A stretch of DNA of 64,000 nucleotides from Candidatus Hadarchaeota archaeon (GTDB lineage Archaea; CAYQAE01; CAYVLA01): the NCBI GenBank assembly GCA_964621445.1, contig CAZUNO010000012.1:16516-80515 (forward strand). Reading direction: 5' to 3'. The notes under the pieces are model-generated. The model searched no databases, was not told the origin of the DNA, and saw only the letters and a list, made by a program, of their open reading frames with translations. Made by a program: the position numbers and the translations under genes. Numbering within the stretch: the stretch's first letter is position 1; each line of letters opens with the position of its first letter. Shown piece after piece: positions 511-28,255 of the stretch.

Positions 511-731
511 GGGGGTTTCATCCAATGGAGACCGAATGCGTTCCACAATTTTTCCTAGCATCTAACGTATAATTTAGTGAGCTGGATCTCGAGATGTGGG
601 AGAGTAGATCGTCGGATATCGGGAAATGACCCGATTTCAACTTCCCCTCCATTTTCATTAACAGGGTCATGACTCGATGAAAGAATATAATATGAGGCTT
701 GACAGCTAGAAAGTGAGTGGTCGTGAGCTCC

Positions 732-2228
732 ATGGAAGGAGAACGAGATATCCTTAGAAGAGGTAGATTTGATGGGGAACAGAATCGCTCTGCCCTGCAG
801 TTCCTGTCCTCCAAAGAGCAAGACCGCAACATACTGGAAGCCGATATCTGGGTAGACAAAGCTCACACACTCATGCTTCACAGAAAAGGCATAATTGGAT
901 CCGAGGAAGCTGGGCCAATTCTTAGGGCTTTATCAAAAATCGAAAGCGAGCCCTGGAAGGACCTTTCCAAGGGAGAATATGAAGATGTACATGTTCTTCT
1001 GGAAAGCAGGATCATAGATATAGTTGGGGAAGAAGCGGGTGGGAGACTTCACACGGCCAGGTCCAGGAATGATGAGGTGGCTACCTGTATCAGAATCGCC
1101 CTCCGATGGCGTATCCTGGAAACCATGGATCTCCTGCTCAAATTGGTGGAAAAGTTCGTGGACATCTCAGAAAAGCACCTGGAAACGGTGATGCCTGGCT
1201 ATACCCATCTTCAACATGCACAACCGACCACCCTGGCCCATCATATTCTATCGCACGCCTTTGCCCTCCAACGTGACATCACTCGGCTAATTTCATGCTA
1301 TGAACGGCTGAATCTCAGTCCGCTGGGATCAGGGGCCATGGCCTGCACAACCTATGATATAGATCCTGTTTTTTCAGCTGAACTAATGGCGTTTGATGGA
1401 GTTATTGAGAACTCGATGGACGCGGTTTCCTCGAGGGATCACATATTGGAGGTCCTCTCATGCCTATCGATTCTCGGCGTAAACCTCAGCCGGCTTCTTG
1501 AGGAAATAATTCTGTGGAGTTCAACTGAATTTGGATTTGTAAAGCTGGCTGACGAGTACTCATCGACCAGTTCCATAATGCCTCAGAAGAGAAATCCGGA
1601 CCTGGCTGAACTTTCGAGGGCCCGGATTTCAACCTTGATGGGATCTCTATTCTCATCTCTGACCATCTGCAAGGCCTTGCCACAATCCTATAATCGTGAC
1701 CTTCAGGAAGTAAACGCTCATCTCTGGTCCGCCACTGATATAGTAAAAGGAATATTATCGCTTACATCCGGGCTGTTTTCAACCCTTACAATCGATGAAC
1801 GGGCCCTCCAAGAAGCTGCTGGTAAGGGCTTTCCCTGGGCAACGGACTTAGCCGACTTCATCGTTCAAAATTTTGATATTCCATTTAGAACTGCGCACAC
1901 GCTGGTGGCCACGCTAACCAAGGAACTAAATGATCAGGCGGGTCCCTCCGAAATCCGCCGGCAATTGGTGAATTCTTCCTCTAAAATCCTGGGCAAGGAA
2001 ATAAAACCAGGGAACCAAGAACTACAGGAAATTCTGGACCCCGATACCTCCATACGTCGCAAACGAGGAAATGGTCCCTCCCCGAAATCAACTGGAGTAA
2101 TGATAGAGGAAATTAGAAAAAGCCAGAAATCAAACCTGGAATGGCTCGAGAAGAGGGAGCTGGCCATAAACCAGGCAAAGGAAAGAGTATCATCTTTACA
2201 GGAAAGACTTGAATCAGAGGAGGCTTAG
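732..2228 (+). CDS. argH: argininosuccinate lyase
   Basis: LHTARSRNDEV, MPGYTHLQHAQP, SSIMPQKRNPD signature; ATG 732 preferred over GTG 717. Confidence 0.95.
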   Translation: MEGERDILRRGRFDGEQNRSALQFLSSKEQDRNILEADIWVDKAHTLMLHRKGIIGSEEAGPILRALSKIESEPWKDLSKGEYEDVHVLLESRIIDIVGEEAGGRLHTARSRNDEVATCIRIALRWRILETMDLLLKLVEKFVDISEKHLETVMPGYTHLQHAQPTTLAHHILSHAFALQRDITRLISCYERLNLSPLGSGAMACTTYDIDPVFSAELMAFDGVIENSMDAVSSRDHILEVLSCLSILGVNLSRLLEEIILWSSTEFGFVKLADEYSSTSSIMPQKRNPDLAELSRARISTLMGSLFSSLTICKALPQSYNRDLQEVNAHLWSATDIVKGILSLTSGLFSTLTIDERALQEAAGKGFPWATDLADFIVQNFDIPFRTAHTLVATLTKELNDQAGPSEIRRQLVNSSSKILGKEIKPGNQELQEILDPDTSIRRKRGNGPSPKSTGVMIEEIRKSQKSNLEWLEKRELAINQAKERVSSLQERLESEEA

Positions 2229-22907: not shown

Positions 22908-23882
22908 ATGGTAACAAAAAACAGCCCAAATGATTCCTCCTTAAGCCTGAATGAAAAGGCCATGACCCTGGTTCAAAGACTTGTGGATAATGCCGCATAT
23001 TACAAAGTTGAGATATCCCGTCTAAAGGATGGATCTACCCTCATAGATGGAGGTTTGGAGGGTCAGGGAGGGCTGAGAGCCGGGGAATTAATTGCGGAGA
23101 TATCCATGGGAGGGCTAGGTTCGGTCGATCTCACCCGTTTGGATCTATTCGACCAGAAGTTCCCGGGCGTATATGTTTCTACCGATCACCCGCTGCTTTC
23201 CTGCCTTCTTTCACAGCTAGCAGGCTGGTCCATCAAGGTTGGTAAATTTCGTGCGCTGGGATCCGGGCCTGCCCGAGCCCTGGCCCAAACCGAAGCAGTT
23301 TTCGATGAATACAGCTATCATGATGACCATTCGGAGGGCGTGCTGATCCTGGAGACCTCAAAAAAGCCCTCCCACAAGGTATCTACATATGTCAGCAAGA
23401 AATGCAAAATCGACCCCAAGGACCTCTATATCGTGATTACCCCAACCTCAAGCCCCGCAGGAAACCTGCAGATCTGCTCCAGAATCGTGGAGACCGGGAT
23501 CCACAAGATGAACGAGCTGGATATCGACATCGGCATGATCCGATCGGGCATAGGTTCTTGCCCACTTCCCCCGCTCTGCAAAAATGACCTCACCATGATG
23601 GGCAGGACCAACGATGCAATTCTCTACGGCGGTATTACCCATTACCAATCCCTCGCCAGCTTGGCAAGGGACAAAATTGAATCCATCCCCTCCTGCTCAT
23701 CCCCGGATTATGGGAAGCCCTTCGAGGAGCTATTCAAGGCCGCAGGTGGGGATTTCTACAAACTCGATCAGGGGTTATTCAGCCCGGCCCTGGTCCAGAT
23801 AAACGATCTAGAAGAGGGAAGTTTTGACTCATCTGGCCTCGTAAACGAGGAGGTTCTGAAGGAGTCCTTCGACATCACCTAG
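22908..23882 (+). CDS. mch: methenyltetrahydromethanopterin cyclohydrolase
   Basis: SQLAGW, GSGPARAL, RIVETGIHK, MGRTNDAILYGG, DYGKPF, FSPA. Confidence 0.95.
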   Translation: MVTKNSPNDSSLSLNEKAMTLVQRLVDNAAYYKVEISRLKDGSTLIDGGLEGQGGLRAGELIAEISMGGLGSVDLTRLDLFDQKFPGVYVSTDHPLLSCLLSQLAGWSIKVGKFRALGSGPARALAQTEAVFDEYSYHDDHSEGVLILETSKKPSHKVSTYVSKKCKIDPKDLYIVITPTSSPAGNLQICSRIVETGIHKMNELDIDIGMIRSGIGSCPLPPLCKNDLTMMGRTNDAILYGGITHYQSLASLARDKIESIPSCSSPDYGKPFEELFKAAGGDFYKLDQGLFSPALVQINDLEEGSFDSSGLVNEEVLKESFDIT

Positions 23883-25524
23883 CAACCTCAATAGCCCGTT
23901 GCAGTATATCGCTGACCGCTTCATTACCAAGTGCACTTACCAGCGGGCCAAACCTCGGGCCAGATTTCTTTTTCAGCACCAACCGGTAGAGGATTCGGAA
24001 CATCCTTCCTGGTTTAACTCCATGATTCTTGGCTTCGCTAAAAATCGTGGACTGGATCTCGCCCGGTCCTGGGGAGGAGCGGATACAGGAATTTATCCTC
24101 TCTAGGGCTGAAATTTCATTCTCAGAGAGCTGGGAAACGAAATCGCGGTCCGGAACCTCGGCTAATGTGAGAGCCTGATCGGGGACATATGATTCCACCC
24201 AGCGAAGGCCGAACTGCAACCTCCTTCTTATGAACTCAACATCCTCACCGCTAAGTTCCTCACCGATTATACCCGATCTCTGAAGAGTTTCAAGTGCCTC
24301 CTGGATCTGGGTTTCCGGGTCGTATATCTGGGCAATTAATGAAGCGAAGGAGAAATCCACCATGGCAGGTCTCTTATCAGGGATATCGCCGAGTTGCGAA
24401 ATCTCATACAATCTGCTCATATGAGCTCTTTCTCGTTCATTTGAGGGAACCGTTATCCCGTAGTAGACATCGGCGTGGCGGTCATAATCGGAATAGAGCC
24501 TGGGTAGACCGCGCCAGGTAAAGCTTCTGGTCTTCATTAACTTCTTGTTATAGAGAAAACGGAGTAGTTCCGGGGGAGCAACCTGCAGCCACTGGGATGG
24601 ATAAACCACATTGCCAACTGATGCGCTCATCTTCTCTCCATCGATCATTAGATGCTCGTAGAAGAATGGCTCGGGCATGGGGTAATCGAGTATTCGTTCC
24701 ACGATCTCCCCGTTAACCCACCATGCGCTGGTTGGAACCTCGTACTCCTTTCCGCCACCTTCACAGGCCACGTTCCAGCGAGCCCATTCACTGGCCCATT
24801 CTCCCTTCCAAAGTAGCTTGCCCTCGTCACTAGTGGCCTCCGCCTCCCCGATATATCCACAGCCACGGGCCGTGGTCTTTTCGAAGTCGTAATCCCTGCA
24901 CTCGTATCTTACCTTCGTACCACGTAATTCAATTATTCGGGGGGTAATTATCTTTCCGCACTTGCTGCAGATCGGTTTCCAGGGGCTCCAGGTTTTAGAA
25001 AGTTCCGAATCCCGGTACTTACCCAGGATTTCCTTTACCTCGTCCACTTTTTGAAGGATACTCCTTATGTATGAGCTGAAAAAACCCTTCTTGTACTGCT
25101 CACGCATGGAGAAGATATCCATCTCGTTGGACACGAATTTGTGAATAACGTCGAGGTATTCTTCCTGATGGTGCTCCGCGTAGGATTGATGGCATCCCTG
25201 CGGGTCGGGAACATCGGTAACCGGTTTTCCAAGATAATCCTCATATTCCTTGGGAACCCCCCTTGGTATCTTTCTAAGAGGATCCATATCCTCAGCTACC
25301 CAGATCATCCTGGCATCTACCCCTGCATCCTCCAGAGCTGTAACCACGGAATCCGCCCGAATGGTATCGCTAAGGCGTCCTATGTGGAGCACCCCTGATA
25401 GAGAGGCTGAGGATTTAACCACATACAGGTCCCTCTTCTCGACTGGCTTGTCCAGGAAATGAAAGCTACTTCTTTGAATTATGTCTGCGGCCTTCTGATC
25501 GGCCCAGAAGAGTGATTCCTCCAT
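23875..25524 (-). CDS. lysS: class I lysine--tRNA ligase
   Basis: FWAD, SGVLHIG, DPLRKIP, GKLLWK.EW, KMSAS.GN, GPRFG. Confidence 0.95.
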   Translation of the reverse strand: MEESLFWADQKAADIIQRSSFHFLDKPVEKRDLYVVKSSASLSGVLHIGRLSDTIRADSVVTALEDAGVDARMIWVAEDMDPLRKIPRGVPKEYEDYLGKPVTDVPDPQGCHQSYAEHHQEEYLDVIHKFVSNEMDIFSMREQYKKGFFSSYIRSILQKVDEVKEILGKYRDSELSKTWSPWKPICSKCGKIITPRIIELRGTKVRYECRDYDFEKTTARGCGYIGEAEATSDEGKLLWKGEWASEWARWNVACEGGGKEYEVPTSAWWVNGEIVERILDYPMPEPFFYEHLMIDGEKMSASVGNVVYPSQWLQVAPPELLRFLYNKKLMKTRSFTWRGLPRLYSDYDRHADVYYGITVPSNERERAHMSRLYEISQLGDIPDKRPAMVDFSFASLIAQIYDPETQIQEALETLQRSGIIGEELSGEDVEFIRRRLQFGLRWVESYVPDQALTLAEVPDRDFVSQLSENEISALERINSCIRSSPGPGEIQSTIFSEAKNHGVKPGRMFRILYRLVLKKKSGPRFGPLVSALGNEAVSDILQRAIEVAR

Positions 25525-25558
25525 AAACACACCAAAAATACTAGTCGCGGGTCCAAGA

Positions 25559-25750
25559 TGCCGTTCGCCCCGGTTTTTACCGGTGGAGCGGGGTTCGAAC
25601 CCGCGACTTCCGTCTCAAATGAGACTCCGGATGTCCCAGTGACATGGCCGGTGAACCTATACTCGGTCTCCGTGCCCTAAGGTCTCCTATGAGTCCGGCG
25701 CGCTCTCCGGTCGAACCTTGAGGTTCGATAACCGGCTGCGCCATCCCGGC
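25559..25750 (-). tRNA. elongator tRNA-Met (CAT) with four predicted introns (20a/21, 37/38, ~45/46, 68/69)
   Basis: Exons 25750-25730, 25704-25688, 25632-25625, 25607-25585 and 25563-25559 join into a fully paired 74-nt cloverleaf GCCGGGA TG GCGC AGCCGGTTA GCGC G CCGGA CTCATAA TCCGG AGGTC GCGGG TTCGAAC CCCGC TCCCGGC A; BHB-like motifs at the junctions. Confidence 0.88.
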
Positions 25751-25782: not shown

Positions 25783-25794
25783 ATATAAATATAT
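25783..25794. promoter_or_regulatory. TATA-box-like element between the divergent tRNA-Met and radical SAM genes
   Basis: ATATAAATATAT about 30 bp from both the tRNA 5' end and ATG 25824. Confidence 0.55.
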
Positions 25795-28180: not shown

Positions 28181-28255
28181 AGCGAGGTGGGGCAGCCAGG
28201 AGTGCCCGACGGGCTCATAACCCGTAGGTCAGTGGTTCAAATCCACTCCTCGCTA
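28181..28255 (+). tRNA. initiator tRNA-Met (CAT), intronless
   Basis: AGCGAGG/CCTCGCT acceptor with A1-U72, anticodon stem ACGGG/CCCGT with three G-C pairs, CTCATAA loop, GGTTCAAATCC T arm. Confidence 0.97.

Follow-up and report, generated by a model that had tools for sequence, protein, structure and literature searches.

In split tRNAs, a long GC-rich flank helix beside a relaxed bulge-helix-bulge (BHB) motif sets up the cut by the splicing endonuclease EndA, as laid out in those parts of PMC4090602 and PMC4033280 that deal with these genes, and in circularly permuted tRNAs (Cyanidioschyzon merolae, Thermofilum pendens) leader and trailer pair into a BHB, according to the corresponding part of PMC4090602. 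The flanks of archaeal 16S and 23S rRNA likewise pair and carry a BHB in the processing stems (mentioned in PMC7714728). The subject of this paper is an elongator tRNA-Met(CAU) gene with four introns, located on the minus strand of a 64,000-nt stretch (the window; contig CAZUNO010000012.1, positions 16,516 to 80,515) of the genome of a Candidatus Hadarchaeota archaeon, and in particular the 3' trailer of this gene, which is antisense to the T arm of the very tRNA it follows. This anti-T-arm trailer belongs, in a form of its own, with the helper helices known from other BHB-containing RNAs, and we consider it probable, from sequence comparison and modeled folding, that it acts in cis to present the BHB of an acceptor-stem intron to the splicing endonuclease and must later be removed.

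The locus resembles the split tRNA genes of Nanoarchaeum equitans and Caldivirga, as far as the cited parts describe them, in that a helix with a non-tRNA flank adjoins a relaxed BHB. Unlike these, tRNA-Met is one contiguous gene in normal order, the strand engaged by its trailer is mature tRNA (G46–A58), with the helix competing with the final fold, and there is no BHB between discriminator and helix, so that EndA cannot remove the trailer. A reading of tRNA-Met as a split or permuted gene was rejected on the grounds that the 192 nt of the gene hold all five exons in regular order on a single strand and that only one helper strand is flank. In contrast to permuted genes, it is unpermuted, shows no leader–trailer pairing, and has a trailer that pairs with an exon; a candidate leader–trailer pairing, a 5-bp CGCG-centered match, was discarded, being present in the source genome (G000) and one sister species (G003) and not in two others (G001, G002). 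The rRNA processing stems share with the present case that flanking sequence builds the EndA substrate; there, both strands are flanks and are discarded, whereas tRNA-Met would borrow an exon strand temporarily. The intron positions (D loop, 37/38, 45/46, acceptor or T region), the relaxed BHBs, the failure of standard tRNA finders and the presence of EndA paralogues in the genome are all shared with Thermoproteales-type tRNA genes. A GC-rich helix followed by five or six U, finally, recalls a hairpin and U tract of the intrinsic-terminator type, from which tRNA-Met differs in that one arm is the tRNA T arm and in that the tRNA-Asp examples described below have no U tract. In the literature searched, leader or trailer pairing is described for split and permuted tRNAs only, with no trailer set against its own T arm, and the pertinent parts of the papers on Thermoproteales-type introns within that search (including PMC4090602, PMC4033280, PMC3218864 and PMC3241643) treat the BHB as local and mention no role for the 3' trailer.

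Results and Discussion

The tRNA-Met gene begins with GCCGGGAUGG at 25750 and ends with CGGCA at 25559 (Table 1; tRNA position numbers such as G46 and C61 follow our hand-made segmentation into exons and introns). Its trailer element UUGGACCCGCGACU starts 2 nt (UC) after the discriminator A 25559 and is followed by AGUA and a run of five U, the U5 tract. Against AGUCGCGGGUUCGA it forms 14 contiguous pairs, 12 Watson–Crick and two G–U, the count given by the initial annotation of the sequence for 25556–25543 with 25608–25595; the coordinates, the 2-nt spacing and the U5 tract also agree with the sequence. That annotation had placed the whole target in variable loop, T stem and T loop, which holds for 13 bases (G46–A58); the first, A 25608, is by our segmentation the end of intron 3 and not variable loop. 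The pairing is real and nonrandom. When 55 strict T-arm motifs in G000 (3.2 Mb, 89 contigs, 51.7% GC) were compared with the 110 nt following each, 14 pairs arose once, at tRNA-Met, the other motifs giving 10 (4 motifs), 9 (7), 8 (14), 7 (15), 6 (11) or 5 (3) pairs. tRNA-Met also ranks first in a census of the 44 G000 tRNAs recognized by scripts that require a recognizable T-loop motif plus a D-arm signature and hence miss some tRNAs; here the longest contiguous pairing was sought between the first 40 nt of trailer and a segment that starts 6 nt ahead of the T stem and takes in its 5' strand and five T-loop bases. The DNA from the tRNA 3' end up to the helix has no run of four or more T, and any transcript extending as far as the U5 tract will therefore include the helix. 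A direct-repeat (att-site) reading of the trailer was rejected, the antisense match (12 Watson–Crick and two G–U of 14) exceeding a direct copy at about 8–9 of 12 by eye.

Intron 4, which interrupts the 3' strand of the acceptor stem, is the one whose BHB bears on the T arm. Its outer helix H1 is formed by C61–G71 and C62–G70, its central helix H2 by C63 G64 C65 U66 (25590–25587) with intron GGCG (25569–25566), three Watson–Crick pairs and one G–U (CGCU/GGCG), and its inner hairpin H3 by CCGG (25583–25580) with CCGG (25573–25570); the bulges are CC^A on the 5' side (C67 C68^A) and AA^C on the 3' side (AA^C69). These are the parts by which a BHB is defined, namely two 3-nt bulges on opposite strands, a 4-bp helix between them and splice sites inside the bulges. 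All four pairs of H2 and all four of H3 are kept in the four species that carry the gene (see below), and H1, with 2 bp in G000 and 3 bp in the other species, makes this a relaxed form of the motif. H1 and H2 together use C61–U66, bearing out the earlier claim that the intron-4 BHB needs bases 61–66, and they take up the whole 3' strand of the T stem. Since the T arm (GCGGG/CCCGC) is uninterrupted in the precursor, it competes with the intron-4 BHB. What the trailer engages is precisely the strand freed by the BHB, along with the variable loop and five T-loop bases, and in the computed structures its helix is set off from H1 by a small internal loop.

The pairing is conserved in related genomes. 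Three sister species of the same family (G001, G002 and G003) carry the same four-intron tRNA-Met and the same downstream gene at 81, 75 and 86% identity, respectively, and no match to the locus was found in the genome from the sister family (G004); these five species genomes represent the phylum in our collection. Among the matches listed in contig scans with a general T-arm pattern, which were for the most part bacterial tRNAs, one locus (L041) is identical to that of G002 and two (L137, L245) are near-identical to that of G001. The trailers differ across the four species (UCUUGGACCCGCGACUAG, UCCUGAAUCCGCGGCUCAC, UUUUAGAAUCCGCGGCUCAU and CACGGGGCCCGCGACGCU), and the tRNA side of the helix is invariant. 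On the four-species alignment, seven of the 14 pairs never vary, four vary on the trailer side only and yet stay paired (U–A/U–G, G–C/G–U, U–A/U–G and U–A/U–G), and the three terminal pairs are broken in some species. In all, 92.9% of alignment cells are paired; sliding the partner by 1–3 columns leaves no more than 47.4%. The 11-bp core GUCGCGGGUUC is paired in every species and each change within it is a pair-preserving transition; the linker and the bases past the helix vary freely, transversions and an insertion included. A fifth variant, from a single metagenome contig of about 85% identity and a depth of 4.75 that calls for care in its use, keeps 12 contiguous pairs; it shares two of these pair-preserving changes and has lost one pair at the end of the helix. 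The complementarity accompanies the intron in all three orthologous loci, whose comparison was among the checks proposed in the initial annotation. That annotation had further argued that the placing of the G–U pairs on the transcribed strand favors selection at the RNA level, and the non-Watson–Crick cells of the Met helices and of the Asp helices introduced below, 18 G–U against 2 A–C (hand count from the per-pair tables), show the excess that such selection predicts.

The same architecture recurs in two other tRNAs. A scan for acceptor interruptions yielded a second G000 tRNA with an interrupted acceptor 3' strand, tRNA-Asp(GUC) on contig C17 (L251), with one intron of 28 nt in the D loop and another of 31 nt at 70/71; once spliced to 73 nt, it is tRNA-Asp by ARAGORN. 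The BHB of the latter intron (GCCG/CGGC, bulges GG^U and AA^G, outer helix G64–C72 and C63–G73) again consumes the T-stem 3' strand, and the pairing element within the trailer is GAUCCGGGUC, its partner GACCCGGGUU spanning the variable loop, the T-stem 5' strand and U54–U55. The three sister species have the same intron and different trailer sequences with the pairing kept: the helix counts 10 contiguous pairs in G000 and 9, 8 and 16 in the others, with 92.5% of alignment cells paired against at most 57.1% in slid registers, and the intron hairpin shows one compensatory change from A–U to G–C. In G004, a weak Rfam hit led to tRNA-Gly(CCC) (C4, L265) with an intron at 70/71 and the trailer UUUUGCCUGGGUAAC, a GC island in AT-rich DNA, 11 bases of which pair with GUUACCCGGGU. 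Its paralogue tRNA-Gly(GCC), with the same acceptor stem and no 3' intron, has an AT-rich trailer without a complement. The acceptor introns of tRNA-Asp and tRNA-Gly(CCC) occupy the same position and share the outline NGGGNGUAA ... CCCCGNAA, which hints, from sequence likeness, at a common origin or at transposition between tRNAs.

The G000 census sorts accordingly by intron class: the best helices are 14 and 10 pairs for the two tRNAs with an acceptor-strand intron; 10, 9, 9 and then at most 7 for the 36 without a 3' intron; 6, 5, 5, 4 and 4 for the five with a T-loop intron; and 5 for the one with an intron in the T-stem 3' strand, tRNA-Asn. In the G004 census, tRNA-Gly(CCC) reaches 11, and none of the 27 tRNAs whose 3' part is contiguous exceeds 7; three further rows labeled acceptor intron by the script (values 9, 6 and 4) proved on reading to be ordinary 3' ends, and two "Tstem3" rows plus the unsolved rows were left outside this reading. 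The initial annotation had proposed a check of other tRNAs with T-arm or acceptor introns for similar trailers. With acceptor introns such trailers are present, tRNA-Asp and tRNA-Gly(CCC) having the equivalent element; tRNAs with T-loop or T-stem introns have none, and the statement narrows to acceptor introns only. Such a restriction makes mechanistic sense, since only acceptor-strand introns leave an intact, competing T arm: with T-loop introns the T stem is the BHB outer helix, and with a T-stem intron the split stem cannot compete. None of the five G000 tRNAs with T-loop introns of 17–28 nt, at C2:128892(−), C2:103618(−), C5:45163(−), C19:12980(−) and C32:11920(−), has a T-arm-complementary trailer; that the T stem is the outer BHB helix was read from the sequence at C5:45163 and is assumed for the other four. 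The tRNA-Asn intron, within the T-stem 3' strand (63/64 or 64/65), occurs in both families, at G000 C13:79967(+), in G002 (L271) and in G004 (L266), and none of these three has a T-arm-complementary trailer either, which we do not count as contradicting the model. Another tRNA directly follows tRNA-Asn in G000 and G002, and in G004 its CCA end is encoded with T5 at once after it.

The weak Rfam tRNA hits held no additional acceptor-intron case in G001–G003 and one, the tRNA-Gly(CCC) above, in G004. A Met-type pattern run on 401 archaeal genomes, which misses the trailers of G001 and G003 and is thus of little weight for other lineages, matched only G000, G002 and the genome of an unrelated archaeon designated G367. 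At the G367 locus (C11, L279) the T arm is the same, the acceptor stem is uninterrupted, and 8 nt complementary to variable loop and T stem lie 55 nt downstream; in view of that stem and that distance it was set aside as a chance match. A covariance model built from the four Met loci is too sequence-specific, giving the Asp loci only about 6 bits. Apart from the trailers, a shared motif ending in ...CCGGCAC lies a few bases past the 3' end of several tRNA or tRNA-like genes (e.g., CCUGUCCGGCAC and CUCUCCGGCAC), at G000 C15:2300(+), C45:6001(+) and C85:197(−), in G002 (L268) and in G003 (L272).

The energetic consequence of the trailer was assessed with ViennaRNA for nine precursors, four Met, four Asp and one Gly(CCC), with the cost of the BHB taken as the amount by which the ensemble energy under constraint (H1–H3 imposed, bulges kept open) exceeds that of the free ensemble. 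As can be seen in Table 2, addition of the trailer cuts this cost by 2–8 kcal/mol in all nine. The computed T-stem probability falls from 0.42–1.00 to 0.01 or less in three of the four Met precursors and to 0.75 in the fourth, and the probability of trailer pairing over the Met core is at least 0.9 in three species and 0.25 in G001. The free minimum free energy (MFE) fold of precursor plus trailer includes the trailer helix for Met of G000 (−98.1 kcal/mol, versus −83.1 without trailer), for all four Asp precursors and for Gly(CCC), and in Met of G003 the unconstrained H2 probability rises from 0.02 to 0.79 with the trailer. These folding calculations are consistent with the model; they would not establish it alone.

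Table 2. Computed BHB cost (kcal/mol) of acceptor-intron precursors without and with trailer
Precursor	Genome	Without trailer	With trailer
Met	G000	9.2	2.8
Met	G003	5.9	0.8
Met	G001	9.8	1.6
Met	G002	9.5	1.8
Asp	G000	5.1	2.7
Asp	G003	5.6	2.6
Asp	G001	5.9	1.9
Asp	G002	6.4	2.3
Gly(CCC)	G004	8.1	4.8

On the observed sequences, pairing, conservation, restriction to acceptor-intron tRNAs and computed energetics we build the following model. The intron-4 BHB would form only if C61–C65 and U66 pair with intron GGCG and with G70–G71 and not with the T-stem 5' strand, for which the GC-rich, intact T arm of the unspliced transcript would compete. By sequestering the stretch from the variable loop through the T-stem 5' strand to the fifth T-loop base, the trailer would remove this competitor, and its 14-bp helix would serve as a long outer clamp on the 2–3-bp outer helix of the BHB. 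An EndA-like endonuclease would then excise intron 4. After ligation, the trailer would have to go, by unwinding or by degradation that starts at the free, U-rich 3' end, upon which the T arm and the normal substrate for 3' processing could form; for a 3' exonuclease, the obvious place to enter would be the single-stranded AGUAUUUUU tail. G000 has two EndA-family genes (Table 1), candidates for the endonuclease of this model. The base of the trailer helix covers the 3' splice site of intron 3 (A 25608/G46), so that the intron 3 BHB and the full helix cannot coexist, and this overlap would be the sole concrete basis for an ordered maturation. Formation of the helix in the cell, help to EndA, the route of removal and a fixed order of steps are what we infer from the data, and the words "chaperone" and "ordered maturation" of the initial annotation belong to the same interpretive layer. 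Within the checks that can be computed, the interpretation given there is supported.

Several results weigh against this account. Neither the Met nor the Asp trailer helices show two-sided compensatory changes; with the tRNA side fixed, two-sided covariation is impossible and an alignment shuffle control is uninformative, and the pair-preserving pattern, drawn from four to five related sequences, is suggestive and not a proof. A 10-bp match by itself is at chance level, unrelated tRNAs reaching 10–11 pairs further downstream, and the CCCGGG in tRNA-Asp is palindromic. The energetic effect appears only moderately specific, as shuffled trailers give a mean cost of 6.1 (sd 2.0) for Met, with 4 of 100 matching the real trailer, and 2 of 100 do so for Gly. 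The comparison of folds with and without trailer that the initial annotation had proposed came out in its favor, the Met BHB cost being lower in all four species and the T stem reduced, with the qualification that in G000 addition of the trailer lowers the unconstrained H2 probability from 0.36 to 0.06, an alternative pairing within the enclosed loop prevailing. The MFE fold of the G000 precursor without trailer already has the central helix and the intron hairpin. With all introns out and the trailer still on, the helix conformer comes to −43.5 kcal/mol and the cloverleaf to −37.6, a difference of 5.9 kcal/mol in favor of the helix, so the model carries the cost of a removal or unwinding step. 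Finally, the trailer is seen so far in three gene families of one small phylum.

Other explanations must be set against the same data. The helix could be a lock that holds un- or partly spliced precursor out of the tRNA fold and thereby, until splicing is complete, away from 3' processing, CCA addition, aminoacylation or surveillance; any effect on the BHB would then be incidental. That the helix abolishes the T stem in the folding calculations, beats the cloverleaf in stability after splicing and covers the 3' splice site of intron 3 would all suit a lock; with intron 4 in place, however, there is no acceptor stem, hence no substrate for end processing and no need for a lock, and a lock would be just as necessary in multi-intron tRNAs whose T loop or T stem is interrupted, yet all six of these in G000 are without such trailers. 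We rate this explanation as unlikely. It is quite improbable, in our estimate, that the GC-rich helix and U tract are a terminator or 3'-end hairpin that ends or stabilizes the transcript and tunes read-through into the lysyl-tRNA synthetase gene downstream. The Met helix is indeed followed within 3–4 nt by 5–6 U in four of four species, the synthetase gene comes next with a GGTG and leaves no room for a promoter of its own, and a U-rich stretch also follows the Gly(CCC) helix. Against this, nothing about a terminator hairpin calls for the T arm of the tRNA as one of its strands, the Asp helices have no U tract in any of the four species and stand beside different neighbors, so that a U run does not go with every instance, and the feature tracks the acceptor intron, not the neighboring gene. 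Archaeal termination, moreover, is generally held to need only oligo-T.

A neutral origin was considered as well, in which an inverted copy left by insertion of an intron or hairpin (fold-back or inverted target duplication) is kept merely through close kinship. Variable loop through trailer does form one long imperfect inverted repeat, and the trailer is conserved no better than the introns. A relic of this kind nevertheless strikes us as very improbable: G000 has no second copy of the Met introns, the Met trailer or the Asp intron and trailer (blastn-short; best others at most 17 nt, E of at least 0.026), the same architecture occurs in three different tRNAs with each trailer matching its own T arm, and linker and post-helix bases vary freely where the core changes by pair-preserving transitions, with G–U at 18 against A–C at 2. 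A multicopy mobile hairpin module was likewise dismissed, blastn-short of introns and trailers in G000 returning only the loci themselves. As for chance complementarity of a GC-rich trailer, contiguous matches of 9–11 pairs do arise by chance near other tRNAs, but 14 pairs occur once in 55 motifs, are kept in four species and in one metagenome variant, and the feature recurs in exactly the acceptor-intron tRNAs; its probability is extremely small, and rank, conservation and recurrence together exclude pure chance.

The anatomy of the tRNA-Met gene and its surroundings is collected in Table 1. Removal of the four introns in silico restores a canonical tRNA of 74 nt, called tRNA-Met(CAT) by ARAGORN; the unspliced gene is called neither by ARAGORN nor by Rfam, and the Rfam tRNA model also misses it genome-wide at E values up to 1. 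The BHB of intron 1, as read from the sequence, has a CCGG/CCGG central helix, bulges UU^A and AG^A and a 7-bp hairpin. The boundary of intron 3, whose last base makes the first pair of the trailer helix, was set to yield a 5-nt variable loop (AGGUC), and a boundary one base upstream is also possible. The block ATTTATATG, which holds the TATA-like box, is invariant across the four-species alignment, and its position marks the box as the putative promoter of the gene.

Table 1. Features of the tRNA-Met locus in the window and EndA-family genes elsewhere in G000
Feature	Location	Strand	Remarks
TATA-like box TTTATAT	25783..25789	−	about 36 nt upstream of tRNA-Met 5' end; putative promoter
Exon 1	25730..25750	−	positions 1 to 20a: acceptor 5' strand, D stem 5' strand, D loop
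Intron 1	25705..25729	−	25 nt, D loop
Exon 2	25688..25704	−	D stem 3' strand, anticodon stem 5' strand, anticodon CAU up to position 37
Intron 2	25633..25687	−	55 nt, canonical position 37/38; central helix CUCA/UGGG
Exon 3	25625..25632	−	positions 38–45
Intron 3	25608..25624	−	17 nt, position 45/46, relaxed BHB
Exon 4	25585..25607	−	G46–C68: variable loop, complete T arm, first 3 nt of acceptor 3' strand
Trailer target AGUCGCGGGUUCGA	25595..25608	−	intron 3 last base, G46–C48, T-stem 5' strand G49–G53, T loop U54–A58
Intron 4	25564..25584	−	21 nt, position 68/69, acceptor 3' strand
Exon 5	25559..25563	−	C69–C72 and discriminator A73 (25559)
Anti-T-arm trailer UUGGACCCGCGACU	25543..25556	−	14 pairs with 25608–25595
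U5 tract	25534..25538	−	4 nt past trailer helix; likely transcript end
Class I lysyl-tRNA synthetase (lysK)	23875..25524	−	ORF; Pfam PF01921, E=3.5e-97
EndA-family gene	L273 (G000:C2) ORF 1468-2589	−	373 aa, two catalytic-type domains and N-terminal domain
EndA-family gene	L274 (G000:C9) ORF 520-2043	+	507 aa, also weak Sen54-like N-terminal match

A run of 5–6 T stands at the place of the U5 tract in all four species, and by the oligo-T rule the tract is the likely end of the tRNA transcript. The lysK start codon lies 34 nt past the tRNA-Met 3' end in each species, with GGTG (25533–25530) 7–10 nt before the ATG, and no room is left between tRNA and ATG for a TATA box of lysK's own; going by this layout, lysK probably relies for its expression on a tRNA–mRNA cotranscript that arises when the U5 tract is read through. 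Elsewhere in the window, an intron-less second tRNA-Met(CAT) at 28181–28255 on the plus strand is the sole tRNA called by ARAGORN and Rfam; its acceptor stem AGCGAGG/CCUCGCU opens with A1–U72, which is typical of archaeal initiator tRNA.

Conclusions

How the archaeal splicing endonuclease reaches introns inside the helices of a folded tRNA is a question usually left open: BHB and cloverleaf are mutually exclusive, yet the literature searched treats the BHB as a local motif. Transient borrowing of a T-arm strand by the trailer would be a simple, genetically encoded answer. What is gained is a set of testable constructs, an annotation rule for multi-intron tRNA genes that finders miss, and a possible constraint on the siting of introns. 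More tentatively, and with doubt prevailing, one may imagine that acceptor-stem introns are possible only together with a T-arm-antisense trailer chaperone that switches the tRNA fold into the splicing fold, clamps the BHB and is then stripped off, in the order acceptor intron, trailer removal, remaining introns and end processing. If that were true, the trailers of intron-rich archaeal tRNA genes would be functional RNA elements coevolving with intron position, and the rule could serve to predict tRNA genes that are now hidden and to account for the sites open to intron gain.

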